From IMG/VR virus record IMGVR_UViG_3300010391_000003: a DNA stretch of 64,000 nucleotides, one strand, 5' to 3'. The stretch is from an uncultured virus (IMG/VR IMGVR_UViG_3300010391_000003) (Duplodnaviria > Heunggongvirae > Uroviricota > Caudoviricetes). The notes under the pieces were generated by a model, which saw nothing but the letters and a program-made list of their open reading frames with translations, searched no databases and was not told the origin of the DNA. Shown here piece after piece: positions 12,567 through 62,996 of this stretch (position 1 is its first letter; the number at the start of each line of letters is the position of its first letter). A program made the position numbers and the translations under genes.

Positions 12567-13180
12567 TTAAGGACAGTTAAGACAAAGTTAATGTAGAACT
12601 TTTGCATTAACTACTAATTTTCGATATGTATTAGTATATTTTATCTAAAAAGTTAAAGAATTAATGTTTTTATAAAGACATAGATGTATATTAGTATATA
12701 ATACACAGAAAGATTTAAATACCATAACCTATATAGTAAATACTATTATGACAAAGAATAAAGATGGAACAGAAACAATACATTATTGTGCCTGTGGACA
12801 GTCTGTAAGACTCAGAAAGAAAGACAATATTTGGGTTCATTATGGATGGCACAGAGAGTTTGAGACATATGCGATGTTCTTAGAAAGAACAAATCATCCT
12901 GTAAAAAATATAACAAGTCAGATATGGAGAAAGTCTGTTTATCCATTTGAAAATGGGGTGAGAATAGTATGAATAGTGATAACAAAAGACTAATATTATT
13001 ATTTGTTTCAATAATGGGACTGGTAATATTTGCATTTGGTCTTGTATCAATTGGTATGTCACCTGAATTTTCCCAATATTTTTATGCAAATGTTGCTGTT
13101 TCGAAGGCAAATTGGAAAGAATTGATAATGATTATTGTTGGTTATGTAATAATAAGAATTTCTGCAGAAATGGAATAATT

Positions 13181-14209
13181 ATGTTAGATAAATTACTTAC
13201 TCGAGACGAATTTCGTAAAAGAGTTTTTGAAAGAGATAATCATCGTTGTATTATGGTTCTTCCAGAACATAGAGGAAGATGCACAAAATCTGCAGTAGAT
13301 GCTCATCATATTATAGAACGAAGATTGTGGGAAGATCCTTCTGAATTTGGAGGATATTTTATTAATAACGGTGCAAGTCTTTGTGAAGAACATCATATAG
13401 CTGCAGAAAAGAATTTCTATCCACCACAATATCTTTGGCAAATTATTGGAATTAAAGAACCAATTAGACCAAAATTATTTGTCAATGATTTGGATTATAA
13501 TAAGTGGGGGTTTCCATTCAAAATGCCGAAAAGATACCAAATTAAATATCCTTCAACACCATATCTTCCTTTCAGTCCTGGATGGAAAGAACCAAATTCT
13601 GATAAAGATGATAATGCATATTTAGAAAGTGTTGATTGTCTTCTCAATACTCCTCTTGTTACAACCATAAAAATGGATGGTTCTAATATACAGATGACCA
13701 AAAATCATATTGCAGCAAGAAATGGCACTTGTGCAATACATAAGAGTTTTGACTTTCTTAAAGCACTTCATGCACAAAAATATGGTATGTTGATACCAGA
13801 TGGCATTGAGGTTTTTGGAGAATGGCTTTATGCAAAACATAGCATTCATTATGATAGAGATATATCCCTTAATAACTATCTTCAGATTTTCGGAGTTTAC
13901 GACATGAATAGAAGGCTTTGGGGCTCATGGGACAATGTTGAAAACATGGCAAAAATTCTTGGTGTTCCAACAACACCAGTTCTAAAATTTGTTTCATACG
14001 AAAAGGATTGGCAATTAATTTTTGATGTTACAAATATGGCTCAATCTGTTATTAAAAGAGGACATGAAGGAATTGTTATTAGAATTGTATATCCATTTCA
14101 CTATGGACAATTTGAAGATCATATTGCGAAATATGTAAGACCAAATCATGTCCAAACGGATCAACATTGGACAGAACAGCAAACTGTAAAAAATATATTA
14201 AAAAATTAG
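13181..14209 (+). CDS. RNA ligase family protein with N-terminal HNH domain
   Basis: N-terminal VFERDNHRC...DAHHII...NGASLCEEHH; ligase motifs KYPSTPYLPFSPG, KMDGSN, VFGEW, EGIVIR, AKYVRPNHVQTD.HW; ATG 13181. Confidence 0.85.
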   Translation: MLDKLLTRDEFRKRVFERDNHRCIMVLPEHRGRCTKSAVDAHHIIERRLWEDPSEFGGYFINNGASLCEEHHIAAEKNFYPPQYLWQIIGIKEPIRPKLFVNDLDYNKWGFPFKMPKRYQIKYPSTPYLPFSPGWKEPNSDKDDNAYLESVDCLLNTPLVTTIKMDGSNIQMTKNHIAARNGTCAIHKSFDFLKALHAQKYGMLIPDGIEVFGEWLYAKHSIHYDRDISLNNYLQIFGVYDMNRRLWGSWDNVENMAKILGVPTTPVLKFVSYEKDWQLIFDVTNMAQSVIKRGHEGIVIRIVYPFHYGQFEDHIAKYVRPNHVQTDQHWTEQQTVKNILKN

Positions 14210-14606
14210 AAAACTATATATGATAAGACTTTCATACAAGTTATTAAGAGGACAATAAATATGAGAAAAGAAGAAATAAAAGAGATGATAAAAGACTATT
14301 TGGAATCCAATGAAGGTAATATGGATATGCATGGTCTTACACCAGATGGAGCAGCAGACACAGAAGCCATGGCTGAAAAAATAACAGAAAAGGTGTGGGA
14401 ATATGTAATATATGAACATTATATGAAAGTACTGGATAGAAGTTTCTCTCGAATGAGGTAATTATGAAAATAGAAGAAAAAATCTTATCATTTTATGTAA
14501 ATAACCATGAATTAATGCCAATGACAGAATTCCAGAAAGGATATCTTAGAGCCTTAACAGATATAGTGGTAAAGAAAGATCCTATGCAAATTATAGAGGT
14601 TTAATT

Positions 14607-15224
14607 ATGGGTAGAAGATTAAAACAAATTAAAAGAGGAGATCTCGGAGACTTTGGAAAACAGGTTGTAGATTCTTTGATAAATACGAAGAAAAGACCTC
14701 AGAAAGACGAAAAAGAAGAACAAATGAGGTGTAAAGTAGAAATATATGAAGGAACACTTGTTAGGCGTCTTACCGATTCTTTTATTGTAAATACAAATTA
14801 TATAGAAGATACAGTTTCTGAAATTGTATCAAAATATGGTGAAAATGTTCAATTTATAATTACAAATCTATATAATGAAGAAACTGTGGCAAAAAGATTC
14901 ACATATATAGGAGGATATGACAAAGAAAGAGTTGATAGAGAACATTATAATCATCAAATGGAATTATATAAACGAGTCCAAAAGCTTAAAGAAGATGGAA
15001 AAACAGAAGAACAGGCTTGTGACAAAACATCACATTTGGCTTCAAGGTCATACATAAGAGAAATATATAGAAAATCTGAAGAAGATTTTAAGAATGAACT
15101 GAGAGATGAATATGGAAATCAGAATTTGGGTAAATCACAATCAAACATACTTACGGAAGATTTAAATACTAAGAAAGATATATTAACAAATAGCAATCTC
15201 AAAGGTGAAAATGATGAAGAATAG
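14607..15224 (+). CDS. Hypothetical protein
   Basis: 205-aa ORF with a GAGGT Shine-Dalgarno. Confidence 0.6.
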   Translation: MGRRLKQIKRGDLGDFGKQVVDSLINTKKRPQKDEKEEQMRCKVEIYEGTLVRRLTDSFIVNTNYIEDTVSEIVSKYGENVQFIITNLYNEETVAKRFTYIGGYDKERVDREHYNHQMELYKRVQKLKEDGKTEEQACDKTSHLASRSYIREIYRKSEEDFKNELRDEYGNQNLGKSQSNILTEDLNTKKDILTNSNLKGENDEE

Positions 15225-15724
15225 AAATGAGAGAGATGCAGAAAGGAGAAATTACATAAGAGAAAGAACAAAAGAAAATCTCGATCTTGTTGTAAATGAT
15301 CCTCAAAGTCTGTTTGCGAAGGAAACAATAAAATGACAAAGCTTAAAAGTATAAAAAGAACGAGAATTTTGGATGATTCACAGCCTCCATTTAGATGCAT
15401 AATTTGTGGTAAATCATTTAGAACACAAGATGAACTTTCTGAGCATCAATATTATAATTGTACAGGTGGATGGTAATTTGAAATCTTATATATCTGTTTT
15501 ACGATCAAGGTGGAAAGATTATTTATATTCTGATGGTGTACAAGTTAAATTAACAACACACGAATATACTTCTGGATTTTTATATCCACAATTTGGAGGA
15601 GTTGTTCCAAAAATAGAAGTGCATAAACTTTTACAAAAATTCTATAATGAACGAATACAATTTATTCCCAAAGAAAAGAGATCCAAATTTAACGAATATT
15701 TTAAGAAAGCATTTGAAGTAGAAA

Positions 15725-16147
15725 TTGGATGGTAATTTGACAGAATTATATCATGTAACATTTAAAACCAGAGCAAAAAGTATTATCTCTGATGGTATAG
15801 TCCCAAAAAGAAAATCTGTTTATAAAGGACTCTTCACCGAAATAAAAAATATTGGAAGTATATATGCCTTTACAAATTTTGATGACGCTGCAAGATGGGC
15901 ATCTCGTATGAATTTTGACTTTGAACGTCAAACAATTATTGTTATTTTTAAAGATGATATTAAAAAATGGAAACAGGATATTCATTTTGAAGGAGCAGGA
16001 GCAAGAGGAATGTGGATAAAGAAACAAGGTTCAGTTCCTGCAAAAAATATAATTAAAATCATAGATCATACACAAGAAATGACAAGAGCAATCGTACAAA
16101 CTCTGGGAAGTAGAAAACAACAACATAAAAGTGGGAGAATAATATGA
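15725..16147 (+). CDS. ADP-ribosyltransferase-fold protein (Tpt1/KptA/DUF952-like)
   Basis: LYHVT...SIISDGIVP...IYAFT...A..WA and C-terminal VPAKNII pattern. Confidence 0.6.
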   Translation: MDGNLTELYHVTFKTRAKSIISDGIVPKRKSVYKGLFTEIKNIGSIYAFTNFDDAARWASRMNFDFERQTIIVIFKDDIKKWKQDIHFEGAGARGMWIKKQGSVPAKNIIKIIDHTQEMTRAIVQTLGSRKQQHKSGRII

Positions 16148-16306
16148 CAAGATACAAAATAAGAGATCAATTCGGTTATGATTTGGGTGTAGTTTCTGCA
16201 ACTAATCAAGAAGAAGCAAGGAATAAAGCAAAGAAAAAGTATAAAAAATCAACTGTTAGAGTCATGAAAATAAGATAGTTATTGAAGTCTAGTCAGCTTC
16301 GATTTC

Positions 16307-16369
16307 CGACAGGACAATAGTACTACGCAAAAATCTGAGAAAGATGTTATTCCCCTAAAAGTCCTGTCG
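16307..16369 (+). ncRNA. Candidate 63-nt stem-closed small RNA element (copy A)
   Basis: CGACAGGAC/GTCCTGTCG perfect 9-bp closing stem with a 45-nt interior; intergenic; shares motifs with 31010-31072. Confidence 0.4.
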
Positions 16370-16389
16370 TTACACTAATTTGGATAAAT

Positions 16390-16683
16390 ATGAATAGAAA
16401 ATTTGTAATTATAATAATTTTAATATTATCTGTTGTTAGTGTATCTGCAGTCAATATGACTGAAAGAACATCAAATTGTGTAAGTATATTAAATTATGAG
16501 GGAATAACAACACTTGTAGGTTCATTGATGCTATTAATATTTGGAATAATGATAGTAGTCAATGCATTAAAAGAAGAAGATCCAAACATGATAGTCTTTG
16601 GAATAGTAACTGTTATTATTGGTTTTGGTGGATTATTGTTTGGAAATTATATATTTTCTATTATACACAGTGTATTATGTTAG
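16390..16683 (+). CDS. Small membrane protein
   Basis: Signal peptide plus two TM helices. Confidence 0.6.
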   Translation: MNRKFVIIIILILSVVSVSAVNMTERTSNCVSILNYEGITTLVGSLMLLIFGIMIVVNALKEEDPNMIVFGIVTVIIGFGGLLFGNYIFSIIHSVLC

Positions 16684-16694
16684 TTTCAAAAACC

Positions 16695-16739
16695 TTTATA
16701 TACTATAACTTTCATTATTAGTTATAGAGGCAATAATAT
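16695..16739 (+). promoter_or_regulatory. TATA promoter with palindromic operator CTATAACT-N9-AGTTATAG (copy 1)
   Basis: 44/45 nt identical to 19913-19957; directly precedes the CCA gene start. Confidence 0.75.
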
Positions 16740-18125
16740 ATGAAAGAACTAAGCAACAACATAAGAGAGGCATTCTGGGGATATGAACTATTTTATGTTG
16801 GAGGCTATGTCAGAGACAGGGTAATGGAAGATATAATTGGAAAGGAGATAATATCGAAAGATGTCGACTTTGCAACTAATGCAACTCCAAGTGGTCTTAT
16901 TACTCTGTGCAAATCATGGGGTCTTAACTACAGATATACAAAGAATAGTATTGCTCATGGAACAATAACAATAGAAGGTTATGAATTTACAACATACAGA
17001 AAGGATGTTTCCTGCGACGGACATAATGCAATCGTAGAATGGGCTGAAACTATTGAAGAAGATCTTTCAAGAAGAGATATAACTATTAATGCAATGGCTT
17101 TTAACTTCTGGACTGGAGAACTTGTAGATCCATTCAATGGAGTTAATGATATAAAGAATAAAATAATCAGAGCAGTAGGTAATCCAGATGAACGTCTTAA
17201 AGAAGATACTCTTAGAGCACTCAGAGCAGTCAGATTTGCAAATAAATTTGGATTCGAAATAGAAGATGAACTTCTTATAGCAATAAAAAATACAGATATT
17301 TCTAATATTTCTGTCGAAAGAATTCGGGAAGAATTTATGAAAATACTGGAAACAAGAAGTGATAATTATATTCTTAGTATTCTATATAAAGTAATTCCCG
17401 AATTTGGTGTTCTTGATAAACTTGATGGTGGAGATAAACATGCTGAAACTGTAAATGTTCATTCTATATGGACTATGAGAAGTATGATGGAAGCTTCAGA
17501 TAAGCCTCTCAATGCACTTATAGCACTACTTCATGATATCGGTAAAGGATTTACCTTTGACGACCCAGATAGAAAATTCAAGGGGCACGAAGATATTGGC
17601 GCAGAGAAAATAAAGAGGATAATGGAAAGGTTTAATACATTCTCTAATGATGAAATTGATTATGCATATGTAATGGTAAAAAATCACATGAGATGGCATT
17701 TCTTCGATAAAAAATTCGAATCTCCAACTGATAAAACTCTCAGAAAAGCAATAAGAGATCTTCCCGACAAATTTGATAAGCAGGAAATGATGACAGATCT
17801 GATTATTCTTACGTGGGCAGATTGCCAAGCTAATCTTCTTAATAAACCTGAATCTCTCGAAGATTATGTAGAAAGAAAAGGAATCTATAAAAGAGCACTG
17901 GAAATGATAGATGAAAAACCAGAAGTAAAAATAGGTTCTGGGCTCGAACTTAATGGTAATGATCTTATCGAAATGGGATTTAAACCTTCCCCTCTCTTTA
18001 ATACAATCCTGACCGATGTTCTGAATAAAGTCATTGGAGAAGATGAAAGTATGAAGCTGGATAATAATAAGGAAATGCTAAAGAAATATGTAATAAAGAA
18101 TTATGTCAACAAAGAAAGAAGATAA
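16740..18125 (+). CDS. cca: Class II (bacterial-type) CCA-adding enzyme / tRNA nucleotidyltransferase with HD domain
   Basis: VGGYVRD, DVDFAT, EEDLSRRDITINAMA, EDTLRALRAVRF (EDxxR), HD motif LLHDIGK. Confidence 0.9.
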   Translation: MKELSNNIREAFWGYELFYVGGYVRDRVMEDIIGKEIISKDVDFATNATPSGLITLCKSWGLNYRYTKNSIAHGTITIEGYEFTTYRKDVSCDGHNAIVEWAETIEEDLSRRDITINAMAFNFWTGELVDPFNGVNDIKNKIIRAVGNPDERLKEDTLRALRAVRFANKFGFEIEDELLIAIKNTDISNISVERIREEFMKILETRSDNYILSILYKVIPEFGVLDKLDGGDKHAETVNVHSIWTMRSMMEASDKPLNALIALLHDIGKGFTFDDPDRKFKGHEDIGAEKIKRIMERFNTFSNDEIDYAYVMVKNHMRWHFFDKKFESPTDKTLRKAIRDLPDKFDKQEMMTDLIILTWADCQANLLNKPESLEDYVERKGIYKRALEMIDEKPEVKIGSGLELNGNDLIEMGFKPSPLFNTILTDVLNKVIGEDESMKLDNNKEMLKKYVIKNYVNKERR

Positions 18126-18573
18126 AATTTGTCCAAAGTGTGGAAATTCAGATGATAAAATCATTACAGAATCCTTCTCACACTTAGATGATTTCTTCTT
18201 ATTTGAATATTATTGTTAATGATTGTGAATGTTTTTGGAGTAGAGTATTTTCATATATTGGTATTACCATAAGAGATGAAGAAAAACATAAAGAATTTAT
18301 AAGTAAGATATTTCCAAGGTAATATGACATTAATATGTGAATTTTGTGATAGAGAAGACAGTGAATCTTTACGAATGGCACTTGGTAAATTTGCGTGTTG
18401 GAGATGTTACCCCACAAAAATATATATAGAAAATAAAATAGAAGAAACTAAAAATGATAGAATAGAATGCACTTGTCATGGTTGTTGTTCATTATCAGAA
18501 TTAGGATATATAAAGAAGAATAATAGTTGGATTAAGCAAAAGTTATAAATACTTAAAAATTCAATTAGATATT

Positions 18574-18891
18574 ATGAAAAAATCTCCATGTGATAAATGT
18601 GATGCAAGATGTTGTACATATAATCACATACTTTTAGAAGAAAGTGAAAGATTTAAGTACATATCAAATGATATTGAAAATATTATAGGAAGTTATCTTG
18701 TTCTTCCTATGAATCATGGAAAGTGTCCATATCTTTCAGGAAATAAATGTAGTATTTATGACAACAGACCAATATCCTGTAGAACATTTGAATGTGTTTA
18801 TGGATACAAAAATAGAAAAGGAAAGAAAACATTGACAGAATTTTTAAAAGATAATCCCGATGTTGTAAAATTAATAGAGGAAACAAAATGA
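18574..18891 (+). CDS. YkgJ-family (CxxCxxCC) Fe-S/Zn cluster protein
   Basis: CDKCDARCC...CPYL..NKCSIYDNRP..CR.F.C. Confidence 0.8.
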   Translation: MKKSPCDKCDARCCTYNHILLEESERFKYISNDIENIIGSYLVLPMNHGKCPYLSGNKCSIYDNRPISCRTFECVYGYKNRKGKKTLTEFLKDNPDVVKLIEETK

Positions 18892-19397
18892 AAACACTGG
18901 TGATTGGTGGATTAGGAAAAGGAATGTCTCTTAATTTATTAAAAATAAAAAGTATGAAAGAACTTAAATTAATAATAATTCGTGGTCTTCCAGGATCTGG
19001 AAAATCAACTCTTTCTGGATCACTGAAAGGTACAACTGGAATAATACATTCTACAGATAGTTATTTTATTACAGACGGAATATATAAATTTGATGAAACA
19101 AAACTTTCTGAATATCACAATCGTAATCTCGAAGATGCAATAGAATCTATGGAGAAAGGTATATCACCGATAATTATAGATAATACTAATCTTATTGCAG
19201 AATATGCATTTACATATGTTATAGAAGCGAAATTCTATGGATATGAAATTGAAGTTGCGGAAACACAAAATCTGTGGAGATTCGATATTGAGGAACTTAT
19301 GAAAAGAAATATTCGTGATATTCCACGTGAAAGATTGGAGACAATGATAAAACTCTATGAACCATTAGAAATATTTAAGGAGAAATTGAGAATATGA
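18888..19397 (+). CDS. AAA_33 P-loop polynucleotide-kinase-like protein
   Basis: LIIIRGLPGSGKST, STDSYF and IIIDNTN motifs typical of PNK/N4BP2-like kinases. Confidence 0.85.
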   Translation: MKTLVIGGLGKGMSLNLLKIKSMKELKLIIIRGLPGSGKSTLSGSLKGTTGIIHSTDSYFITDGIYKFDETKLSEYHNRNLEDAIESMEKGISPIIIDNTNLIAEYAFTYVIEAKFYGYEIEVAETQNLWRFDIEELMKRNIRDIPRERLETMIKLYEPLEIFKEKLRI

Positions 19398-26799: not shown

Positions 26800-27996
26800 A
26801 TGACAGAAAATAAAATCACAAAAAATCAGTGTATAACAATCATATTAATTTTATTTTTTGCTCTGATCCTGAGATTATATCTCTCTCAATTCGGGGGATA
26901 TGAACTTGATGTAAATTGGTTTAAGAATTGGAGTCAAGAAGTTTATAGTAATGGATTTTCTAACTTTTATCAAAATACAAATTCAGATTATCCACCATTT
27001 TATATTTATATCTTATGGGTAATAGGAGCAATAAATAGTCTTACATCTACAAATATAAATCCTTTAATCTTATTTAAATTACCTTCATTTTTTGCAGATA
27101 TTGCAACGTCTTTGTTAATATTTATTATTGTAATTAAATATACATCATATAAAACAGCCTTAATTTCTGTAATATTTTATGCTTTTAATCCTGCAATAAT
27201 TTATAACTCATCAATATGGGGACAAGTAGATTCAATATATACATTCTTATTACTTTTTGCTATTTACGAATTTATATCAGAAAAACCAACAAATTCAGCT
27301 ATATTTTTTGCATTATCAATATTAACAAAACCACAAAGTCTTGTTCTTTTTCCTCTATTTTTAATCTTAGGTTTTAAAAAGTATAAACTCAATGTATTAA
27401 TTAGATCTTCAATAATTTCTTTTGTTGTATTTATACTTTTTGCATTACCTTTTTATGTAAATACCTCAATTTTAGAATTATATAGATTATATACATCATC
27501 ATATATTCAATATCCTTTTACATCATTAAATGCATTTAATTTCTGGGCATTGGTTGGGATGTTTAAACCTGATAACACTATATTTTTATTTTTGACGTAT
27601 AGAATATGGGGATACATACTATTCAGTATTTTCTTTATTTATATAACATACTTTACAATAAAAAATAACAATAACACAATTTTATACTATTCTTCAGTAC
27701 TATTATTTTTAGGATTTTTTATGTTATTTACAAGAATTCACGAAAGATATATGTTCCCAATATTTTCATTTCTTTCTATTGTAATAATATTTGATAGACG
27801 TCTGTATTATGTATATATATTATCTACAATAACATTTTTGGCTAATTTATATCTGGTCTTTGAAGAAATAAAGATGGGGTATGCAATACCATTTAGTATG
27901 TTTATAATTTCTTATTCTATTATTATGAATATAGTAATATTTATATATTTAAATTACTGTTTTATTACATATAATATAGAGGAAAGTAAAATATGA
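26800..27996 (+). CDS. GT-C polytopic membrane glycosyltransferase (mannosyl/glucosyltransferase-like)
   Basis: DYPP, FNPA...SSIWGQVD, KPQ, NAFNFW and HERY motifs; about 10 TM helices. Confidence 0.8.
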   Translation: MTENKITKNQCITIILILFFALILRLYLSQFGGYELDVNWFKNWSQEVYSNGFSNFYQNTNSDYPPFYIYILWVIGAINSLTSTNINPLILFKLPSFFADIATSLLIFIIVIKYTSYKTALISVIFYAFNPAIIYNSSIWGQVDSIYTFLLLFAIYEFISEKPTNSAIFFALSILTKPQSLVLFPLFLILGFKKYKLNVLIRSSIISFVVFILFALPFYVNTSILELYRLYTSSYIQYPFTSLNAFNFWALVGMFKPDNTIFLFLTYRIWGYILFSIFFIYITYFTIKNNNNTILYYSSVLLFLGFFMLFTRIHERYMFPIFSFLSIVIIFDRRLYYVYILSTITFLANLYLVFEEIKMGYAIPFSMFIISYSIIMNIVIFIYLNYCFITYNIEESKI

Positions 27997-29153
27997 CAAA
28001 CTACTTTTTAAATCTAACAGATGATAATATAATTAGAATCTCATTTGCATATAATCCCGAATCAGTTGAATCTGTAAAATCTTTTTCAAATAGAAGTTGG
28101 AACAAAGAGCTTTCTTGTTGGGAAATACCTTTAAGTGTGTGTAATGAGATTCCAAAGGTTTTAGGAGTATATATACCACAAGATATTAAGGAAAGATATG
28201 AATATATTTATAATATAAAACCAATTAAATATGATGAAACTCTTATACGACCAGAAATAAAACCATATAATTTTCAAATTTTAGGAATTGAATTTGGTGC
28301 TTCAAATAAAAATTTTCTTCTTGCAGATGAAGTAGGATTGGGAAAAACATTACAGGCTATTGGTACTGCTCTTCATTTGAATTGTAAGAAAATTATTGTT
28401 GTTTGTCCTTCTTCTGTAAAAGGTCAGTGGCAAAGAGAAATAAATAAATTTACTGATAAAAGTTCTATCATTATAGATGGATCTCAAAAACAACGAGAAC
28501 AACAATATGAAAAAGATGTTATGTTTTATATAGTAAATTATGAATTAATTCTTAGAGATATATCAATCATAAATAAAAGACTTTGGGACATGGTTATAGC
28601 TGATGAGGTTTCAAGAATTAAGAATTGGAAATCAAAGACAAAGACTGCTCTTACAAGAATTAAAACAAATTTTAAAGTTGGTGTTTCAGCAACACCAATA
28701 GAGAACAATATACAAGAACTTCATTCTATTGTTTCTTGGATAAATCCTAATATTTTCGGATCATACTGGAATTTTGTAAATGAATACTGTTATTTCTGCA
28801 ATAATTCATATGGTGGATATCAAGTTACTGGAATAAAGGATGCTAAAAAACTTCACGAAACACTAAAATCTGTAATGATTAGAAGAAAGAAAGCAGAAGT
28901 ATTTAAGGAGTTGCCAGAAATAATCCACAATGAATATTATGTGCCTTTGACACCAACACAAAAACAGATGTATGAAGAAGTCAAAGGAAATATTATGAAT
29001 CTGGTACAAAGAGGAGATATGTCAAACAATATGCTTAATGAGATTATGTATTTGAGAGAAATATGTAATAGTCCTCGACTTCTAAATCCTGACATTATGG
29101 AAAATGGAAAGGTTGATGAGATTGTAGAAATTATTAAACAATTTACAGATTAG
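27993..29153 (+). CDS. SNF2-family helicase, N-terminal part (HARP-like domain + ATPase lobe 1)
   Basis: FAYNPE...RSWNK...WEIP (HARP-like), LLADEVGLGKT, VVCPSS, IADEVSRIKN, ATPIEN, MIRRKK, LREICNSP; ends just before motif IV. Confidence 0.9.
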   Translation: MTNYFLNLTDDNIIRISFAYNPESVESVKSFSNRSWNKELSCWEIPLSVCNEIPKVLGVYIPQDIKERYEYIYNIKPIKYDETLIRPEIKPYNFQILGIEFGASNKNFLLADEVGLGKTLQAIGTALHLNCKKIIVVCPSSVKGQWQREINKFTDKSSIIIDGSQKQREQQYEKDVMFYIVNYELILRDISIINKRLWDMVIADEVSRIKNWKSKTKTALTRIKTNFKVGVSATPIENNIQELHSIVSWINPNIFGSYWNFVNEYCYFCNNSYGGYQVTGIKDAKKLHETLKSVMIRRKKAEVFKELPEIIHNEYYVPLTPTQKQMYEEVKGNIMNLVQRGDMSNNMLNEIMYLREICNSPRLLNPDIMENGKVDEIVEIIKQFTD

Positions 29154-29155
29154 AT

Positions 29156-29725
29156 ATGAATAAATTAAAACTTTCAGATGATTCATTTTATCCATTAATT
29201 CCATCTATTTGTGAATGTGGAAAATGCAATAGAATAATTTTTAAAAGAGGAATAAAATTTATAAGTGGACATAATGCAAATAGAAAAGGAATAAAACAAA
29301 ATCAAGAATGGAAAATTAATAAGTCAAAGATGATGAAGGGAAAACATAATTCACAAAAAACTGAATGGAAGAAGGGTAAAGTTGCATGGAATAAAGGACT
29401 TCATCCATCAATAGAAACAATAGAAAAATTATCTAAATCTCATATAATAGATGGAAGATCTTTCGAACCATATTCTATCGAATTTAATCTTATATTAAAA
29501 GAATCTATTCGTCTTCGTGATTCTTATACATGTCAAATCTGTCACAAAACTCAAGTAGAAAATTTTAAAAAAATTAAAAGAAAATTGTGTATTCATCATG
29601 TAAATTATAATAAAAAAGATAATAGATTAAATAATCTTATTAGTTTATGTGGTTTATGTCATTTAAAAACAAACCACTTTCGTAAATACTACGAACAATA
29701 TTTTGCTTTAATTTTGGATAAGTAA
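29156..29725 (+). CDS. HNH homing endonuclease inserted within the SNF2 helicase
   Basis: IPSICECGKC...FISGH, AWNKG, RDSYTCQIC, IHHVNYNK, LCGLCHLKTN. Confidence 0.9.
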   Translation: MNKLKLSDDSFYPLIPSICECGKCNRIIFKRGIKFISGHNANRKGIKQNQEWKINKSKMMKGKHNSQKTEWKKGKVAWNKGLHPSIETIEKLSKSHIIDGRSFEPYSIEFNLILKESIRLRDSYTCQICHKTQVENFKKIKRKLCIHHVNYNKKDNRLNNLISLCGLCHLKTNHFRKYYEQYFALILDK

Positions 29726-29726
29726 T

Positions 29727-30185
29727 ATGAGAAAAATAATATTATTTACACAATGGAAAAAATTTGGTGATCTTCTATGTGAAGCCTTCAAAGAAAATCA
29801 ATGGAATTATATTTTTGTTCATGGAGGTTTAACTTTTGAAGAAAGAGAATCTTCACTTCAAGAATTTGAACATGATGAAAATATTAAAATATTAATAACA
29901 ACTGATTGTTTATCATATGGATGTAATCTACAGTTTGCAGATGTTTTAATCCATTGTGACTTATTGTGGAATCCACAAAAAATGATACAAAGGGAAGGAA
30001 GAGTTCATAGAATAGGTCAAAAAAATGTTGTAAATGTTATAACAGTTATGACAGAAGGAACAATAGAAGAAAAAGTTTATTTATTATTAAAATCAAAGTC
30101 TGATTTATTTAATCAGATTATAGAAGATGAAAATAGTTTAAAATTTAATATGGATGTTATAAGAAAGATATTCAAAGATAAATAG
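29727..30185 (+). CDS. SNF2-family helicase, C-terminal part (HELICc)
   Basis: KIILFTQW (motif IV), GCNLQFAD, WNP...QREGRVHRIGQ, TIEEK. Confidence 0.9.
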   Translation: MRKIILFTQWKKFGDLLCEAFKENQWNYIFVHGGLTFEERESSLQEFEHDENIKILITTDCLSYGCNLQFADVLIHCDLLWNPQKMIQREGRVHRIGQKNVVNVITVMTEGTIEEKVYLLLKSKSDLFNQIIEDENSLKFNMDVIRKIFKDK

Positions 30186-36272: not shown

Positions 36273-37232
36273 ATGTCAGATGTTCGCGAGATTCTCTTCC
36301 CAAATTTTTCGAGAATGGTAGGAAATCCTAAAGCATTTCTTATAAATAGTCGTGAAGATCTTAACAGGTTTGCATCTGTTAATTCTTCGGAAAATGACAA
36401 GAATTTTTGTTCAATATGTTCTTATTACAATGATGTCCCTGTTTTTGAAGACAATTTTTTAGAAACAGATGATTATACACCAGAACCAGTAAGAAAAGTT
36501 GTTCTTTGGTATGAATCTAAAAACATTCCTTGGATTTGTCTTCTTAGTGGAAATAGAGGATTTCATCTGCATGGACTTTTTGAACCAGAAATTGTAAATC
36601 CAAAAACTGTAAAAAACTTTGCAAATCTTGTTTTGGAAGAGACGAATACTAAAGAACTTTTTGATTCTCATGTTAGTGGTGTTTTAGAAAAACTTTGTAG
36701 AATACCAAATACACAAAGAATCGGAAATGGTTGGTGTGTTCCAATAACAAGAGAAGAATTATTTACTTTTAATACATCAGAAGAATTTAAAAAATTATAT
36801 GTTTCTCCAAGATTTATAGATTTTAAAATTTTAAAGAGACCCTCTATATTTGAATTTATTAAAGAAGATGATACAACAGATAAACCTGTTCAGGTTATAC
36901 AAACTGCTCCTCCAAAAGATGTATTTTTGTTAAAACAAATTTTGAGACCATGTGTATATAAGTCTATTTTCACACCAAATCCAAAACATGACTTCAGAGT
37001 TTCTGCAGTTGTAGAAATGAGAAATCATGGTATTTCTGGAAATCAGATATTTGAAATTTTTGAACATCTAAATTGGATAGATTTTGGACATGATAAAACT
37101 AGATATCAAATAGAAAAGATTGAAGAAAAAAGAAAGTCTGGAGAATTAATGATCCCATTTGGAAAGAAAAGACTTGGTTGTGAAAAGAAGATATCTTGTT
37201 TTAAGTGTGTTTTATGTGGTGGAGAGTTTTAG
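36273..37232 (+). CDS. Archaeo-eukaryotic primase, PriS catalytic domain fused to a PriL-C/PriX-like domain
   Basis: SGNRGFHL, RIPNT; C-terminal RPC...H..R...DF..DKTRYQI..I...GC....C..C..C. Confidence 0.8.
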   Translation: MSDVREILFPNFSRMVGNPKAFLINSREDLNRFASVNSSENDKNFCSICSYYNDVPVFEDNFLETDDYTPEPVRKVVLWYESKNIPWICLLSGNRGFHLHGLFEPEIVNPKTVKNFANLVLEETNTKELFDSHVSGVLEKLCRIPNTQRIGNGWCVPITREELFTFNTSEEFKKLYVSPRFIDFKILKRPSIFEFIKEDDTTDKPVQVIQTAPPKDVFLLKQILRPCVYKSIFTPNPKHDFRVSAVVEMRNHGISGNQIFEIFEHLNWIDFGHDKTRYQIEKIEEKRKSGELMIPFGKKRLGCEKKISCFKCVLCGGEF

Positions 37233-37235
37233 ATA

Positions 37236-37250
37236 GAAAACTATATATAC
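37236..37250 (+). promoter_or_regulatory. BRE/TATA promoter of the ~220-nt ncRNA
   Basis: GAAAACTATATATAC; TATA box ends about 23 nt before G37272. Confidence 0.65.
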
Positions 37251-37271
37251 TTTTAGGATATATTAGGTATT

Positions 37272-37493
37272 GAGGACATAATCCTATGTCTGACTGTCTG
37301 TAATTTAAGGAATCGGATGGTTTTGGCAAACCTCCCCGAAGAATGAATACAGAGCAGATCTATAAGCTTCAAGTGCGATCTACTGAGATGCCTATGAGTC
37401 CCAAGTGGCAATGGCTAAAAACTCAATAGAACAATAGTCTTGAAGACGATCTGACAGGATATGAAACAGGTAGGAAGCCAAATTATGTCCCTC
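37272..37493 (+). ncRNA. Structured ~220-nt non-coding RNA of unknown family
   Basis: About 42% GC (hand count 93/222) in an AT-rich genome; no ORF; 5'/3' closing stem and at least six nested helices; own promoter and U-tract. Confidence 0.75.
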
Positions 37494-37503
37494 TTTTTCT
37501 TTT
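37494..37503 (+). terminator. Archaeal oligo-T terminator
   Basis: TTTTTCTTTT immediately after the closing stem. Confidence 0.6.
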
Positions 37504-38966
37504 ATACTAATTAGGTAATATTTATATACTATTAAAGACAATTAGTATTAGGAGATAATTATGAATTTTATAGTAAAAATGTTAAAAGACGGAAGATTAA
37601 AAGTTGTGGGTAGTAAAAAATCAAAAATTTTAGATATGCCAGCTTCTGATAGAGTAATTGGAAGTGTTTTGTATGTAACAGACTTGCAGAAACTTCAGGC
37701 AGGAGAAGAAGTTATTGTTTCTGGAGTAGCTGCACTTGAATTAGAAATATATGTAGGTTATTAATTAAAAGAGGTAAATATGAAAACAAGTGAAATTGGA
37801 GAGCTATTGAGTTCAGATTCCACAAGTAAGAGGGGAGATGTATATACTGTAAGAAAAACTTATTATTATAAACACGGTTATGATGCAATGCAATATGCAA
37901 GCAAAGTAAAAAGTGTTTTTCCTGATGCTATAATTATTGATTATGGTGATCATTGGGCTCCATTTCGTGGTGGAGACTCTGTTGAAAGGGGATCACATTG
38001 GTATGTAAAATTTAAATTACCAAGTGGTTCAGTTCCTCGACATCAAAATCCAATAGCTATGGGAGGTTATTCTGTACAATCAGGACTTCCAAATAATTTG
38101 AGGTTATAATATGTTATTCTCAGATCTTAAATTATTAATGGATGAAGACATTGATAGAATTAAATTAGATATAAAAACAGGAAGAAGACAACTAATGTAT
38201 ATTAATTTGTCAAAATTAGAAATGAAACATAGAATGTTTCCAAGACTTGCACAAATAGTTCCACGTGAAGGAGACTATGGAATATTTGAAATATCAGGAA
38301 ATATTGTAAAATTCACTGGAGAACTTGATTCTAAAAAAGTAAATTATGTAAGAAGTTTACAAACTCCAGACTTCATGAGGTTATAACTGTGGGAAGATTT
38401 ATATATAAAGGAGTAGATATTGATGAGAGTCGTGGAAAGTATATGGTATGTACAAATAAAGATCTTTTAAAACTAGGTCTTTGTACTCATAAGACACTTC
38501 AAAAAGGACATCCAGGATATGTTTCATTAAAAAGATTAATAAAACTTATAGATGAAAAAAGATCTAAATTATATTAAGTATGAATTTCAAATTAATACAA
38601 AAGGATTATAAAACTGAAAGATACGAATCAGATCTTGGACAAGGATTATCAGCAGTAGTAAAAATGCAATATCATACACATCTTAAATATTGGGATGTTT
38701 TCTATAAAATAACATATCCACCATACTATCAAACAGATCACATTTTTGGTCAGGCTTATATTGATAGTCGTAAAGAAGCCAGAAAAATTGCACAACAAGT
38801 AATGGATAATGCAAGACCTGATGATTGGAAAACTAAATTATCAGAATTTTTTCAAAAGAATATTAGAGAATCTATAACTCCTAATTTTATTAAAGTGTAG
38901 CCAAATATTTATATACTATTACTTTCATATTGTATTTTGTTAGAATTTAAACAAGGACAGATAAAT

Positions 38967-44716: not shown

Positions 44717-45352
44717 ATGGTAAAGAAAGGATTTGTTCCATGGAATAAAGGTAAATATTTATCAGAAGATCATAAAGAAAAAATTAGAATAGCTTGTTCG
44801 GGTTCAAAAAATGGATTTTTTAATAAACATCATACTCCTGAAGCAATCGAAATAATTAGAGAAAAACACAAGAGAGAAAATCTTTCTCCTGAAACTATCG
44901 AAAGGATGAAAATAGCAAATTCAGGTAGAAAACACACAACAGAATGGAAAAAATGGAATTCTGAAAGAATGTCAGGTTCTGGTAATCCAATGTATGGAAC
45001 AATTTCTCCAATGAAAGGAAGAAAAGGTAAAGATCATCCATCTTATATTGATGGTCGTTCTGTTTATCCATATTGTGAAAAATTTAATAGTATTCTAAGA
45101 GAACAAGTTCGTTCTCGTGATTCTCATACTTGTCAACTCTGTGGTAAAACTCAAGAACAAAACAAGAGAAGACTTCATGTCCATCATATTCACTATGACA
45201 AGCAATATTGTTACCCAGACCTAATATGTCTGTGTACTTCATGTAACTCAAAAGTAAATAAACCTTCAGAACGAAAGAATTATGAATCTTTCTTTATGAA
45301 CAAATTAAATGATAGAAATTTATTATTTTGGACTAAATATAGAAATAAATAG
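44717..45352 (+). CDS. NUMOD3-HNH homing endonuclease
   Basis: PWNKG, KHHTPE, GRKHT, RDSHTCQLC, HVHHIHYDK, LCTSCNSKVN. Confidence 0.85.
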   Translation: MVKKGFVPWNKGKYLSEDHKEKIRIACSGSKNGFFNKHHTPEAIEIIREKHKRENLSPETIERMKIANSGRKHTTEWKKWNSERMSGSGNPMYGTISPMKGRKGKDHPSYIDGRSVYPYCEKFNSILREQVRSRDSHTCQLCGKTQEQNKRRLHVHHIHYDKQYCYPDLICLCTSCNSKVNKPSERKNYESFFMNKLNDRNLLFWTKYRNK

Positions 45353-45399: not shown

Positions 45400-46554
45400 A
45401 TGAATAACAATATACGCAAACTTGCATCAATACAGAAAATAGATGATATAAAACCTCATGATAATGCCATAAATCTTGAATTAGCAACTATCGGTGGATG
45501 GCAAGTAGTTGTAAAACTCAATCAGTTCAAAAAAGGAGATCTTTGTGTTTATTGTGAAACAGATTGTCTTTTACCTGAAAGACCTGAATTTGAATTTCTT
45601 AGATCGAGTCATTTCAGAATTAAAACTGTAAGACTTCGTGGAAAATTATCCCAGGGCATAGCATTCCCTTTGGATATTCTCCCAAAAGAACAATTTGATG
45701 ATATAAAAAAATACAACAGATATGAAAAAATCATAGGAAATGAGGTCACAGAACTTCTTGGTATTATAAAATATGAACCTCCAATTTCTCCACAACTTAT
45801 GGGAATGGCAAGAGGAAATTTTCCTACACACTATCTTCCAAAAACAGATGAAGAAAGATTACAAAGCAGAATAAAATTATTAAAAGAAATAGACGGAAAG
45901 ATTGTAAATATAACTCTTAAAGAAGATGGAACAAGCTTTACAGCTTATCATGTTGTAGAAGATGTTCCAATAGACGAACCATTAGATAATAATCCTCAAA
46001 CAGATCCAAGATATGAACAAAGAGAAAGAGTGGGTGTTTGTTCGAGAGAAGTTGACCTAAAAGAAGAGGCATTCCCAGGATCAGACATGAACACATATTG
46101 GAAAGTAGCAAATCAATATGATGTTAAAAATAAATTAATGGATTTTTACAAAAATACCGGAAGAAATATTGGTATTCAAGGAGAAATTACTGGTTATGGA
46201 ATAAATGAAAATAGACTAGGATTACCAAAAAATACATATCAATTACATCTGTTCAATATATATGACATAGATAATCATAAATATGTTGACTTTGCAGAAT
46301 TTACTACAATCGCAGCAGTCTTGGAAATTCCTACTGTAGAAACAATCTACTTTGGAAGGTTTAATTTTACATTAGAACAACTTCTTGAGATGGCAAGAGG
46401 AAAGTATGAAGGAACAAATAATACACGTGAAGGCATCGTTGTAAGACCTGTAGAAGAAGAATTCTCTGATGCACTACAAGGAAGATTATCTTTCAAAGTT
46501 ATAAATAATGATTACGAAGAAGAAAAGGAGAAAAAGAGAAAACCACATGTTTGA
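45400..46554 (+). CDS. RNA ligase, DRB0094/Rnl2-like
   Basis: RKLASIQKI, GWQVVV, LRGKLSQG, PKTDEER, KEDGTS, QGE, REGIVVR, FKVINNDY. Confidence 0.9.
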   Translation: MNNNIRKLASIQKIDDIKPHDNAINLELATIGGWQVVVKLNQFKKGDLCVYCETDCLLPERPEFEFLRSSHFRIKTVRLRGKLSQGIAFPLDILPKEQFDDIKKYNRYEKIIGNEVTELLGIIKYEPPISPQLMGMARGNFPTHYLPKTDEERLQSRIKLLKEIDGKIVNITLKEDGTSFTAYHVVEDVPIDEPLDNNPQTDPRYEQRERVGVCSREVDLKEEAFPGSDMNTYWKVANQYDVKNKLMDFYKNTGRNIGIQGEITGYGINENRLGLPKNTYQLHLFNIYDIDNHKYVDFAEFTTIAAVLEIPTVETIYFGRFNFTLEQLLEMARGKYEGTNNTREGIVVRPVEEEFSDALQGRLSFKVINNDYEEEKEKKRKPHV

Positions 46555-47772: not shown

Positions 47773-48591
47773 ATGAGGGAAAAAATTAGATATTATTGTA
47801 AAGTATGTAGAAAAGAAACTGACCACACAGTTACTTGTAGTGATGAGTGTCTAAGAAAACTTCGATCGACAAATGTTAAGGATGGTAAAAATCCTATGTT
47901 TGGTAAAGAATCTTGGTGTAAAGGTCTAACCAAAGAAACTGATCTAAGAGTTAAACAAATTGGAGAAAAATTATCTAAGACAATGAAGAAACAATATAAA
48001 GAAGGAAGAGTTTCTTACAGAAAAGGAACAAAATTCTCTAAAGAAAGTTGTGATAAAGTTTCTGAAAATCATGCAGATTTTTCAGGAGAATTAAATCCAA
48101 ATTTTGGGAATTTGTGGTCAGAAGAACAAAAAGAAAATATGAGAAGAGAAAATAATCCAAATTTTGGAAAACCAATGTCTGAAGAAACAAAAGAAAAGAT
48201 TCGGTTCGCATTGATAGGATCTAAGAATCATAGATATGGAAAACCTATAATAGAAGGATCTGGTTGGGTAAAAAGATATTATTATAATTCTCCATTCCAA
48301 GGTGTAGTATCTCTAAAAGGTTCATATGAATACAAATATGCATTATATCTAGATAGAAACAAAATTCCCTGGTTATATGAACCGAAGGCGTTTCCTCTTA
48401 ATATAGAAGGAAGAGATACAACATACACACCAGATTTCTTATTATTAAATGAAAGAAAATTCATAGATACAAAAGGTTATCTTACTCCAAAATCAAAACT
48501 TAAAATTGATAAATTCAGAACAGAATATTCAAATTTAAGATTAGAAGTATTGTTTCGAGAAGATTTACAAAAATCAGGAATAAGGGTATAA
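47773..48591 (+). CDS. NUMOD3 protein with C-terminal PD-(D/E)xK nuclease (homing-endonuclease-like)
   Basis: NPNFG/NUMOD3 repeats; SYE...LD...WLYEP..F...YTPDF...IDTKG. Confidence 0.75.
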   Translation: MREKIRYYCKVCRKETDHTVTCSDECLRKLRSTNVKDGKNPMFGKESWCKGLTKETDLRVKQIGEKLSKTMKKQYKEGRVSYRKGTKFSKESCDKVSENHADFSGELNPNFGNLWSEEQKENMRRENNPNFGKPMSEETKEKIRFALIGSKNHRYGKPIIEGSGWVKRYYYNSPFQGVVSLKGSYEYKYALYLDRNKIPWLYEPKAFPLNIEGRDTTYTPDFLLLNERKFIDTKGYLTPKSKLKIDKFRTEYSNLRLEVLFREDLQKSGIRV

Positions 48592-51578: not shown

Positions 51579-52737
51579 ATTAAGAATACTAACCAAAACC
51601 TATATATCCTTCAACGTCAATATAGTAATTAGATGATAAATATGTGGAAAGACAAATGTAATAAATGTGGAAGAAATATCTTCAATGGTATCCCTGAGGA
51701 ACACAGAGATCATATAGATACTTATATAAAGGATATGGAAAAAGAGGGAATGTTTATAGGGCACAATACAAAAACAGTGGGGACATGGGGACATATAAAC
51801 GAAGTCCCAATAAAACCAATTTGTTGTGTATGTAAAAAAGAAGAATATGAAATAAAAAATGCAAAGGACACAAAGAAAGCATTTATAAAGATAAAAAAAT
51901 CTCTAAAGAAGGTCTTTGTTTGTCCAATTTGTCTGGATAGTACACACAGAGGATACAATGAAAAGGTATTTATGACTACAATTAGAACAGTAATTGAAAA
52001 TCATATCAAAGAAAAACATAATCTTTCTGAATATGAGTCTATAATTTCAGAACTAAAGAATTATTAGAAACACAATATTGATTTATGAAAGAGGGTGTCG
52101 GAAGATATAGAATTCCATTTTTCAGGAAAGATCCAAAAAGTGAGTCAACATTTCAAAGAAATTTATTGACGTTTTAAAGTTAATTCAAGTTAATGTATAG
52201 TTAATGACAAATTTTATCTTAACTAATATGTACAGACAATTTAGTTAATGAATTAAGGTTTACATCTAACATTACTAATAATATACTATATTCATAACTT
52301 TAAAATTGAATGTTGTTTTAATAAACAATTAATTTAAAAACATAATGGTAAACAATTATCTTTATATCCTATACATTAATACTTAGTAATAGAGGACATA
52401 AAGTATGAAAGATAATAATTTAACAAACAATAATGTCGAACAGTTAATAGAAAAGTTAAATTCTGGTTGGGAAAGAATGTTTCCGGACAATCCAGAACTC
52501 GAAAGTGTGTTTATGAATTAAGAGGAATAAAAATGAACAATAAGATAAGAGGGATAATATTGATGTTACCAATGACTATAACAATAATATTAACACTAAG
52601 ATATTTATATCTAAGTGATATTATATTGTTTTATACTATGATACAATTATTTGGTATGTTGTTTGGGTTTATGATTTTAGGGATATTATCTTTTATCGGT
52701 GTAAAAGAATTGGTAAAATAATGGAGAATTAAAAAAT

Positions 52738-59872: not shown

Positions 59873-59897
59873 AAAAATTACGGTAGATGATATAATA

Positions 59898-60305
59898 ATG
59901 TTTCTTTTTTATTTTATTTTATTTATTATTTTTATTTATCTAATAATAAAACTTTTAAGCGGAACAAGAGAACTATATATTGATGAGAATGGATATTACA
60001 GATATGTATATAATCAAAAACTTGTTCATCGAGATGTTGCATATAAATATATTTATAAAAATAATAAACATAAATATCCCCTAAGATTTAGAAATTATCA
60101 GGTACATCATAAAAATAGAAATAAATTAGATAATGATGTTGAAAATTTACAAATTGTCACAAGAGAAGAACACGAAAAAATACACGGAATTACAAAAATT
60201 AATAGAGAATGGTCTCGATGTAGTTGTTTGGATAAATATGGACAACAAGTAAATCATTGCACAGATTGTGGAAATCATAAATATTTGCCAGATATTTATC
60301 GATAA
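59898..60305 (+). CDS. HNH-family nuclease with N-terminal TM helix
   Basis: Hydrophobic N-terminus; NGY...VHR.VA...VHHKN.NKLDN..ENLQ...EH...H. Confidence 0.7.
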   Translation: MFLFYFILFIIFIYLIIKLLSGTRELYIDENGYYRYVYNQKLVHRDVAYKYIYKNNKHKYPLRFRNYQVHHKNRNKLDNDVENLQIVTREEHEKIHGITKINREWSRCSCLDKYGQQVNHCTDCGNHKYLPDIYR

Positions 60306-62440
60306 ATTTAAAATAATAAAGGAGAAATTAAATAAATGTCAGAAATAATAGTAAATGTAAGATGGCTGGATAGATAGGAAAAATTTATGGGCTGGTCAAA
60401 TTATATAATAATACAAAAATTAAAACTTATAATTGAAACAAGTCGAAATATTAATGAAATCTATGATTTCCAAAAGAAAGCATTAGGCTATTTGATTGAC
60501 GATGAAAGAACAATAGAACTCGAAGAACAAGATATATCAAATATAAATATTAAAAATATATCTATTAAAGATTTGGCAATACTATTTTCTACATATGAAC
60601 AAGCTGAAAAAATCTCTGGAATGGAGGAAGACAAATTTCTTTTATATTGGTTAGGATATAAAAATATAGATTATAAAATCATATCTGAATTTGAAATTAC
60701 TAAAGATATAGATGAATATAAAAAAACATATACAATTATTAGAATGTATGAGGAATAAGAATGAAATGTATCAGTCCAGAATGTGAAAATGATGCTACTG
60801 ATTGTTTTTGGTGTGATAAGTGTCTCGATGAATTAGGAAATTATATCGAAGAACATGGTATGGGATTTATTCCATCTTATAAAACAAATAACCTTATTAA
60901 ATAGTACAAGTTATTAAAATATATTTATGGGCAGCATTCATCAAGAAGTAAAATTAAAAATAAAATGTCCAAGATGTGGAGAACCATTATATGGTTTTTC
61001 AATGTTTGATGATTACAACCAAGAAGATCATACAACTTATTGTAAGAAGTGTAATTTTACAGAATCATTCGACGAAACCTATACAAGAATAAATAAGAAG
61101 GAAACAACATGAAAACCAAAGAAAATATAATAGAAAGACTTAAAGATGATATAAATGCTCTTTCAACAGCTCCAAATGAGAAGTATGAATTAATCTATAT
61201 AAATGATATTAAAACAATGATCTGGTTTTTGGAATAAGAGTCAATATTTATGGAAAGGTCATGCGAATTTTGTTTTAACAACAAAACATCAGAATGTAAT
61301 AGTTGCAGTGAATATATGGAAAAATTTGTAAAAGATGACTTATTAAATGAAAAAAGTCACGGATGTTAGAATGTCAAAAAGAATAGTATCAGGAACAGAA
61401 GAAAATGGTGTCTCTATCCAAATTGAAGGAGATATTGTTGAGATTGTGATGTGGTATGATTATAGTGAAATTCATACTGAAACAATAACACTCGAAAGAT
61501 TTAAGCGAGAACTTGGCTTATAGAAAGATTAATATAGTAATAGAACTATACTACTCTCTATGAGTGGAGACAAAGAGTCGTTAAGAAGAATATTAATATC
61601 AGAAATAGAAGATGCAGTCAGTTCTGGGAATCTTGCAAGACGAAGATATTTATTAGACAAAATTCGAGATCTTGACAAAGAACAATCAAGAGCAAAGTAC
61701 AAATCAAAACAAATTATAGAAGACGAGAAAGAATATATGAGATTGGCAGATGAAAGAGCAAGATTAAACAATTATATGCCAACAAATTTGGTTGATAATA
61801 AAAAACAATTCTGGAAAATCTAAAAAATAAAAATTATGACAGAAATTGAGGACTTAAAGAGTATAATTAACGATCTTACACTTGTTGTCGAAATGTACAT
61901 TGATAACTATCCTTTCGACGAAGATCATAAAGCCAAACATCGAATTTTGGTAAATGAAGCCTCATTTATGATTGGAAAACCACGAAGTATAAAAGAATTA
62001 ATAAAAATTTTAAATATAGAAGATAAATTAGAACCTGGAATATTAGAAATACTTAAAAAAGATACACATTGGGAATAAATTATGTACAAAAGAATGTTGA
62101 AAAAGGCACAAAAAATTGTCATAAATCCAAAAAGATTGTGTGATAATAGAGAACAATATCCTGTTGAATGGCTTTTAAAAGATGCAAAAAATACTGGATA
62201 CTTTACCAATCTTGACAGAATAAAATGTGCAATATTATACATGGATAAAAATAATCATTCAAATCATCAAGGTCTTTCAGAAGAAGACAAAGCAAAAGTA
62301 GAAAAATTGATACAATATGATGATATTGTTGATATAGTTTTATTGACATTATTTCAGTGGTTCGGAACAAATGTTGGAAAGAATGACATAGGAAAACTTT
62401 TAGACGAAATTCGAAAATTAAAATATGAGGAAGTTAAATT

Positions 62441-62728: not shown

Positions 62729-62742
62729 TAAGGTAGTAAATT

Positions 62743-62996
62743 ATGAGTAAAGAAACCAGAATAAAGAATATCAGGAAAGAATCTATAAATTAAAATCTGA
62801 AATTGACTTTTGTAATGAACAAATAGATGAACTTAATGGTCTTACAGAAACTTGTCCACATTGCAAAGGAGAAGGTCGATTTATGACAATCCACCGAATG
62901 TTTGGGCAACATTCTTATACAAATTGTTATGTTTGTCGTGGAAAAGGTAAAATTACTATAGAAGAAGTAATAGAATATAATAAAGAACATAAGTAA
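62743..62996 (+). pseudogene. DnaJ-type CxxCxGxG zinc-finger gene with an early frameshift
   Basis: MSKETRIK then a shifted frame EYQERIYK...CPHCKGEG...CYVCRGKG. Confidence 0.5.

Follow-up and report, generated by a model that had tools for sequence, protein, structure and literature searches.

A promoter-bounded, G+C-rich cassette after the primase gene of a probably archaeal tailed virus as a candidate small-RNA gene

Phage morons are independent transcription units inserted between conserved genes, as in the lambdoid phages. C-rich motifs that mask ribosome-binding sites in trans are found in small RNAs of the RsaE/RoxS type from Firmicutes and in some small RNAs of methanogens. About 10,000 structured RNAs have been predicted in viruses from covariation (Fremin et al. 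2023, PMC10690425), and an anti-CRISPR protein has been reported to bind t(m)RNA fragments (Chou-Zheng et al. 2024, PMC11662646); these two papers have no direct bearing on the element described here. Among the matches listed by a full-text literature search, no title dealt with a structured non-coding RNA of archaeal tailed viruses, which is not proof of absence. We analysed 64 kb of DNA from an uncultured virus (IMG/VR IMGVR_UViG_3300010391_000003), referred to below as the window, in which a first-pass annotation had proposed a non-coding RNA gene with its own promoter directly after the primase gene. According to our analysis this element is a reasonable but unproven small-RNA candidate.

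The window has a G+C content of 28.9% (C 11.8%), every sizeable ORF lies on the + strand, and about 87% of it is coding on a crude map of 118 ORFs. Its gene content is virus-like: besides the genes listed in Table 1 it encodes an RNase T-like exonuclease, NrdD, dCTP and dCMP deaminases, an SNF2 helicase, an N6/N4 methyltransferase, an RFC-type clamp loader, a Hef/XPF-type nuclease, a PD-(D/E)XK nuclease and NUMOD3 endonucleases. The RFC small subunit, the Hef/XPF nuclease and the primase resemble archaeal or halovirus proteins; for the clamp loader, the best matches among phage records are haloarchaeal tailed viruses, and of the NCBIfam models that for the replication factor C small subunit fits best. 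Sigma-70-type promoters (found/expected 104/119, 153/141 and 128/139) and hairpin terminators (6/5.5, 5/3.7 and 6/3.8) both occur at chance level over 60 kb. Because archaeal-type signals are present, the primase and clamp loader are halovirus-like and bacterial signals stay at chance, we hold with considerable confidence that the virus is archaeal. Counting against an archaeal host, the CCA enzyme is of the class typical of bacteria and eukaryotes, and NrdD has bacterial or phage proteins as its neighbours in the protein atlas. The atlas taxa, mixed bacterial and viral for NrdD and viral for RFC, did not single out a host.

Several other features of the window deserve mention. An RNA- or tRNA-repair-like gene set occupies 13112-19397 and 45400-46554, and the 64 kb hold no tRNA gene. 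The SNF2 helicase is seemingly split (27993-30185) into an ORF with the SNF2 N-terminal domain (27993-29153) and one with Helicase_C (29727-30182); the 189-aa ORF between these halves (29156-29725), with a weak cytochrome-c7-like match only, could be an insertion in the helicase gene. Two NUMOD3-containing endonuclease-like ORFs (44717-45352 and 47773-48591), which carry Endonuclease VII-like and Endonuclease I-like domains and are probably homing endonucleases, flank an RNA ligase and adjoin the clamp-loader gene. The stretch 5600-6120, with 50-57% G+C and many in-phase GGAGG words, lies inside a 1305-aa ORF (4714-8631, weak PKD/Ig matches) for a probable fibre or surface protein, where it seems to form a Gly-rich repeat region. 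Three long A+T-rich gaps with 22-28% G+C (59873-60386, 514 nt; 52068-52532, 465 nt; 62445-63008, 564 nt), the first of which contains short T/A-rich tandem repeats at 59901-59939, could be regulatory regions, an origin or the home of small unlisted ORFs. CRISPR-like or iteron arrays were not found in the window.

Table 1. Positions of the element, its neighbours and the RNA-related genes in the window
Feature	Position	Strand	Basis
HNH-RNA ligase fusion (window)	13112-14209
Class II CCA-adding enzyme with HD domain (window)	16740-18125
KTI12/AAA_33-like kinase (window)	18888-19394
Archaeo-eukaryotic-type DNA primase, 319 aa	36273-37232	+	tblastn
Promoter region: A-rich GAAAAC, TATA-like TATATATAC (37242-37250), proximal element ATTAGGTATT (37262-37271)	37236-37271	+	Motif class enriched
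Predicted transcript body, 222-base G+C island, no ORF	37272-37493	+	Composition
mRNA-leader-like 5' end: SD-like GAGGA, ATG 37286, 5-codon ORF MSDCL, stop TAA	37272-37303	+	Alignment A3, translations
P1 5' arm GGACAUAAU of the predicted end-to-end helix; alternative local pairing with 37285-37290	37274-37282	+
Predicted hairpin A, apical loop UGGC, C-rich CCUCCCC at 37331-37337	37297-37353	+	MFE and centroid, z -1.43
Predicted hairpin B, CAGAUC/GAUCUG and CUUCAAG/CUUGAAG, ambiguous top	37355-37453	+	MFE and centroid, z -1.56
P1 3' arm AUUAUGUCC, inside second leader-like AGGAAG-N8-ATG	37482-37490	+
T-tract TTTTTCTTTT (T5CT4), candidate oligo-T terminator, weak evidence	37494-37503	+
Separate promoter and leader of next gene (ATG 37561)	37521-37560	+	TTWAWATAC class, alignment A3
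Second RNA ligase, PHA02142 OB fold (window)	45400-46554

The upstream gene had been called a primase, and our searches agree. A tblastn comparison of the ORF with 50,697 phage records returned only eight matches (25% identity, E 1e-17 to 2e-19, 87-90% coverage), all of them in haloarchaeal tailed viruses and all eight under genes annotated as DNA primase, PriS-PriL fusion; sequence searches of Pfam, NCBIfam and the PDB gave no match. The family comprises 34 members in a metagenome protein collection, the protein of the window included; some of the others are 74-76% identical, and contigs of 295 kb and 236 kb are among those that encode them. Loci could be retrieved from eight metagenome contigs and one IMG/VR contig, the latter identical to that of locus L004. 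There was no family member in GTDB genome contigs or in a single-protein search of IMG/VR, and 329 genomes of the searched archaeal phylum yielded only two weak matches.

We scored the presence of the element in the five loci that have DNA after a clearly related primase gene, namely L001-L003 (primase identity 69-72%) and L004 and L005 (48%), leaving out L006, which ends at the gene, and L007 and L008, which are only 25% identical. The element is absent from all five. In each, a promoter comes immediately after the primase stop codon, and behind it stands a small gene, a different one in every locus; the products are small membrane-like, zinc-ribbon-like and, in L005, possibly HNH-like proteins. 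This marks the DNA after the primase as a hypervariable accessory block of small genes. A role in replication priming had also been considered for the element, and a core role of this kind is unlikely because the five related loci do without it. A group I intron was dropped as a candidate: the primase is complete and its relatives end at the same place.

We read the motif TTWAWATAC as an archaeal TATA-type promoter. It occurs 20 times in the window against 10.1 expected, a count reached in none of 100 shuffles, and on the + strand many copies stand about 30-45 nt upstream of ATG starts, usually with an A-rich stretch before and a second element like ATTAGTAT after them. A recurring two-part promoter can be recognized, which consists of TTTAWATAC, about 11 nt, a ATTAGTAT/TATAGT-like element, an SD-like motif and the ATG; examples are found at 11908, 16695, 19913, 25199, 30211, 37521, 38908 and 45358, and also in L001-L003. 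The promoter motif claimed for the element is present, and we regard the promoter call as good: the TATA-like TATATATAC falls in the enriched class, and in alignment A3 it lines up both with the post-primase promoter of L001-L003 and with the copy that stands further downstream in the window. A TATA-type promoter of the kind used by the virus itself, as an independent archaeal transcription unit should have, is therefore found ahead of the element; its centre lies about 26 nt upstream of the predicted start, which was placed near 37272 by spacing.

The two promoter copies also define the limits of the element. The downstream promoter at 37521 aligns closely with the promoter that directly follows the primase gene in L003 (alignment A3), and the sequence to the left of the upstream promoter resembles that to the left of the L003 promoter. 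The direct repeat TATATAC(T)nTTA (D2), present at 37244 and 37523 and thus 279 nt apart, bounds the cassette, and the insertion boundaries relative to L003 fall in these promoter repeats, not at the inverted repeats. The extra 279 bp, with a promoter copy at either edge, have the look of a cassette that was acquired when promoter sequences recombined. At the 3' end, the T-rich tract reported earlier is present. It is weak evidence for a terminator, because the intergenic gaps are not enriched in T5 runs, with 20 in 6.6 kb compared with 152 in the 64 kb of the window; the tract can also be read as Phe codons, and the terminator scan found no hairpin-type terminator at the element.

Composition sets the element apart from its surroundings. 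Its G+C content of 41.9% over 37272-37493, in line with the roughly 42% given before, compares with 17.9% in the left flank (37233-37271) and 16.4% in the right flank (37494-37560), and because G+C jumps at these points, the sharp edges of the island coincide with the predicted start and the T-tract. The island has the highest G+C among the 32 intergenic gaps and stands at the 98.8th percentile of 200-nt windows. An origin of replication was dropped from consideration, the element being G+C-rich, not A+T-rich.

The description of the stretch as non-coding also stands: there is no + strand ORF of at least 40 aa, and no codon-position signal. Virus genes have mean G+C values of 0.42, 0.33 and 0.17 at codon positions 1, 2 and 3, with GC3 between 0.10 and 0.23 in 19 of 19 genes, whereas the element has 0.36-0.45 at all positions in all frames. 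Since the codon-position signal is missing in every frame, the element is neither a gene native to this virus nor the product of such a gene's recent decay. Pfam searches with four conceptual peptides from the element gave no match, and the read-through frame had no candidate homologue among 5.8 billion clusters. For the 41-aa core of this frame, HMMER found a single match among 1.84 billion representatives. The protein concerned, a FYVE protein of eukaryotic type, carries a PPRR tandem repeat, and we regard this as a spurious repeat-protein match. Stop-codon recoding was dropped as an explanation, all three stops being used to end ordinary genes.

The helices listed in the first-pass annotation do exist in the sequence. 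A perfect 9-nt inverted repeat (I5, 100% complementary), GGACATAAT at 37274-82 and ATTATGTCC at 37482-90, brings the two ends together in the predicted helix P1, with a pair probability of about 0.71 for the six central pairs, and hairpins A and B appear in both the MFE and the centroid structure. The MFE structure itself has a local hairpin at each end, and forcing the long-range P1 fold costs 1.8 kcal/mol relative to it. The alternative 5' hairpin that had been suggested is found (z -2.0), an alternative 3' hairpin, GGAUAUGA/UUAUGUCC, lies directly before the U-tract, and a 16-nt direct repeat (D1) supplies two alternative 5' strands for the top helix of hairpin B. The centre of the terminal helix (ATAAT/ATTAT) derives from the palindromic leader consensus ATAATTAT, so the end pairing is partly a by-product of two leader-like ends. 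As a whole, the RNA cannot be called highly structured, as had been claimed: in a comparison that had been named beforehand among those able to refute the claim, the MFE has a z of -1.00 and 30 of 200 dinucleotide shuffles are as stable. The fold of the element thus lies at chance level, and hairpins A (z -1.43) and B (z -1.56) taken singly do not exceed it either. The opposite strand gives a more stable fold (z -1.96), although a promoter motif of the TTWAWATAC class is absent near it. As for the suggested pseudoknot, we estimate that contacts of 5-6 nt could well be due to chance.

Comparison with known RNA families gave no assignment. Across the window no Rfam model scored above its gathering threshold, and at E<=10 over 37100-37650 there were only three snoRNA-family matches (13.8-17.7 bits against cut-offs of 50-65), so that no family matches the element. 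Inspection by eye for the marks of an archaeal C/D or H/ACA guide RNA showed the words AUGA and CUGA and, past hairpin B, an ACA; a canonical box C or K-turn was not seen. HEARO, RNase P, SRP, riboswitch, ribozyme and leader families were without an Rfam match, and no tRNA or tmRNA was detected in the window, nor did ARAGORN with introns allowed report any at normal thresholds, in agreement with the earlier statement that tRNA, SRP and RNase P features are lacking. The suggested likeness to HEARO/omega-RNA found no backing: the Rfam search was negative even at E<=10, and Pfam scans of the 118 ORFs revealed no IscB, TnpB, reverse transcriptase, Cas or Ro-like protein. A Y RNA acting with Ro was dropped because the window has no TROVE protein, and a retron because it has no RT.

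Neither did we find relatives of the element itself. Blastn against phages and exact 25-mer and 18-mer scans of IMG/VR gave no match to it, and BLAST and nhmmer over the related loci matched only promoter pieces. A single-sequence covariance model (R1) recovered only the element itself in the window and nine loci, and nothing in one whole related IMG/VR record or in genome G002; among 151 archaeal genomes of one phylum it matched in six, with a best E of 0.15, which is chance. The inverted-repeat pattern occurred in 2 IMG/VR and 13 GTDB stretches, none of the 15 matching R1 and all due to chance, and the three-loop pattern in 101 IMG/VR matches, 80 of which were scored with the model, again without a match (0 of 80). 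To judge from these searches, the element is a singleton without relatives in IMG/VR, GTDB genomes and the 151 archaeal genomes. Among sequencing runs, only the probable source DNA run, a sediment metagenome, contains it, and no RNA run was listed; the contigs of the source run show no variant and no joint over the element.

What kind of genetic unit could this be? Our tentative preference, held with less than even confidence, is a gene for a small non-coding RNA, carried on an accessory cassette with promoters as its bounds, and we favour it because of the canonical promoter, the sharp composition edges, the lack of a coding signal and the paired ends. We envisage a moron-like cassette, some 280 bp long and flanked on each side by a copy of the virus TATA-type promoter, directly after the primase gene. 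Its payload would most likely be a non-coding RNA about 220 nt in length, transcribed from near 37272 as far as the T5CT4 tract at 37494-37503, and the RNA would close its own ends through a helix of 9-11 bp and carry two internal hairpins. The promoter motif, the G+C edges, the missing coding signal and the absence from relatives are shown; the transcription, stability and fold of the RNA are what we infer. Counting against an RNA gene are the chance-level fold, the lack of a homologue and the absence of the element from all five related loci.

The main rival, in our view somewhat less likely, is a remnant without function. Either a protein-gene cassette that has decayed or been truncated, or recombination scars joined into a patchwork, would have come from a G+C-richer relative and not yet have worn to the composition of the genome, any transcript being a by-product of the retained promoter. 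In alignment A3 the order TATATATAC-N11-ATTAGGTATT-GAGGA-N9-ATG, which leads to ATG 37286, matches the promoter, SD and start of the first post-primase gene in L001-L003 and of the next gene in the window; a second leader-like AGGAAG-N8-ATG stands at the 3' end, where ATG 37484 starts a hydrophobic stub of nine codons, which extends across the T-tract. Leader-like SD and ATG elements at both ends fit the scar of protein-gene cassettes. The frame of ATG 37286 has only two internal stops in 75 codons, yet two stops or fewer are not unusual for the composition of the island (P about 0.13 per frame, an estimate), and neither the read-through frame nor its 41-aa core has a protein homologue. A donor with about 42% G+C is conceivable, since distant primase-relative loci reach 36% (L004), 42% (L008) and 48% (L007), and the region after the primase differs in every relative; even so, a G+C content of 42% with sharp edges, together with two nonsense changes, needs a very recent event. 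A fold at chance level speaks for a remnant, the pairing of the ends against it.

Two further explanations give the paired ends another meaning, and we regard both as very improbable, the latter marginally more so. In one, the element is a cis-acting leader or attenuator for the genes from 37561 onward, in which the 5' arm, by its choice between a local partner and the 3' arm, decides whether the 3' hairpin forms before the U-tract and whether read-through occurs. The mutually exclusive pairings of the 5' hairpin, the 3' hairpin and the long-range helix, and the small energy difference between the constrained fold and the MFE, would suit such a switch; however, the next gene has its own promoter, closely aligned with that of L003, where such a leader is missing, hairpin-type terminators neither pass the scan here nor exceed chance genome-wide, and no riboswitch or leader family matches. 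In the other, the perfect 9-bp repeats (11-12 bp with one indel) are the terminal inverted repeats of a non-autonomous, MITE- or PATE-like mobile element, a view that accords with the length of about 220 bp, the missing ORF, a composition unlike that of the host DNA and ends that can both form hairpins. The element is present in a single copy in 64 kb, and the 15 stretches with the repeat-to-repeat pattern do not match the model; there is no adjacent target-site duplication, the sole flanking direct repeat, ATTAGGTA (D6), being offset by about 17 nt on the right, and the insertion boundaries relative to L003 lie at the promoter repeats. The remaining probability belongs to none of the RNA cassette, the remnant, the leader and the MITE-like element.

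Returning to the RNA cassette, we favour a dispensable trans-acting RNA over a component of replication, because the cassette would sit in a hypervariable block of small genes and all five relatives do without the element; its role is speculative. It could be a regulator or a decoy, for example by means of the words CCUCCCC and UCCCUC, which resemble anti-Shine-Dalgarno sequences. C-rich words are rare in the window (CTCCC three times, TCCCC four times, TCCCTC once), and both words are complementary to the SD-like motifs that precede 67 of the 118 ORFs. The CCUCCCC word is mostly base-paired in the predicted fold, and in calculations with duplexfold, which performs poorly with long inputs, the RNA paired with the 118 start regions no better than shuffles did. 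Could the element be the founding example of a new class of structured RNAs that archaeal tailed viruses encode, a mobile promoter-bounded cassette that acts in trans as an anti-Shine-Dalgarno translational regulator, for example, or as a decoy against host defence? We consider this a long shot.

If it is transcribed and stable, the element would be a rare dedicated non-coding RNA gene in an archaeal tailed virus, and it would also show that conserved promoter sequences are sites of exchange for accessory cassettes. For the present, being one sequence without conservation and with a fold at chance level, it is a lead for anyone who has RNA data or related genomes, not a finding. With the HEARO/IscB omega-RNAs the candidate shares a similar size class, a multi-helix RNA and a location on mobile DNA, but it has no covariance-model match at E<=10 and no IscB or TnpB in the 64-kb window, whose HNH-type genes, the HNH-RNA ligase fusion and the NUMOD3 endonucleases, all lie more than 7 kb from it. 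Like MITEs, it has terminal inverted repeats, a length of about 220 bp and no ORF; unlike them, it is a single copy without target-site duplication, and no related copies were found. Its two C-rich words, complementary to SD sequences of the virus, recall the C-rich trans-acting small RNAs, from which it differs in that the main word is largely paired, no target among the 118 start regions is preferred and there is no relation in sequence. The candidates of Fremin et al. (PMC10690425) are likewise intergenic, virus-borne and of unknown function, but rest on covariation among homologues; since it has no IMG/VR homologue, the element could not be found by covariation and is therefore without that support. 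Phage morons offer a parallel in the element's own promoter and possible terminator, in its presence in one genome and absence at the same site in relatives, and in its deviant composition. It differs from them in a payload that is seemingly non-coding, in a probable archaeal host with TATA-type promoters, and in boundaries that are themselves copies of the promoter.
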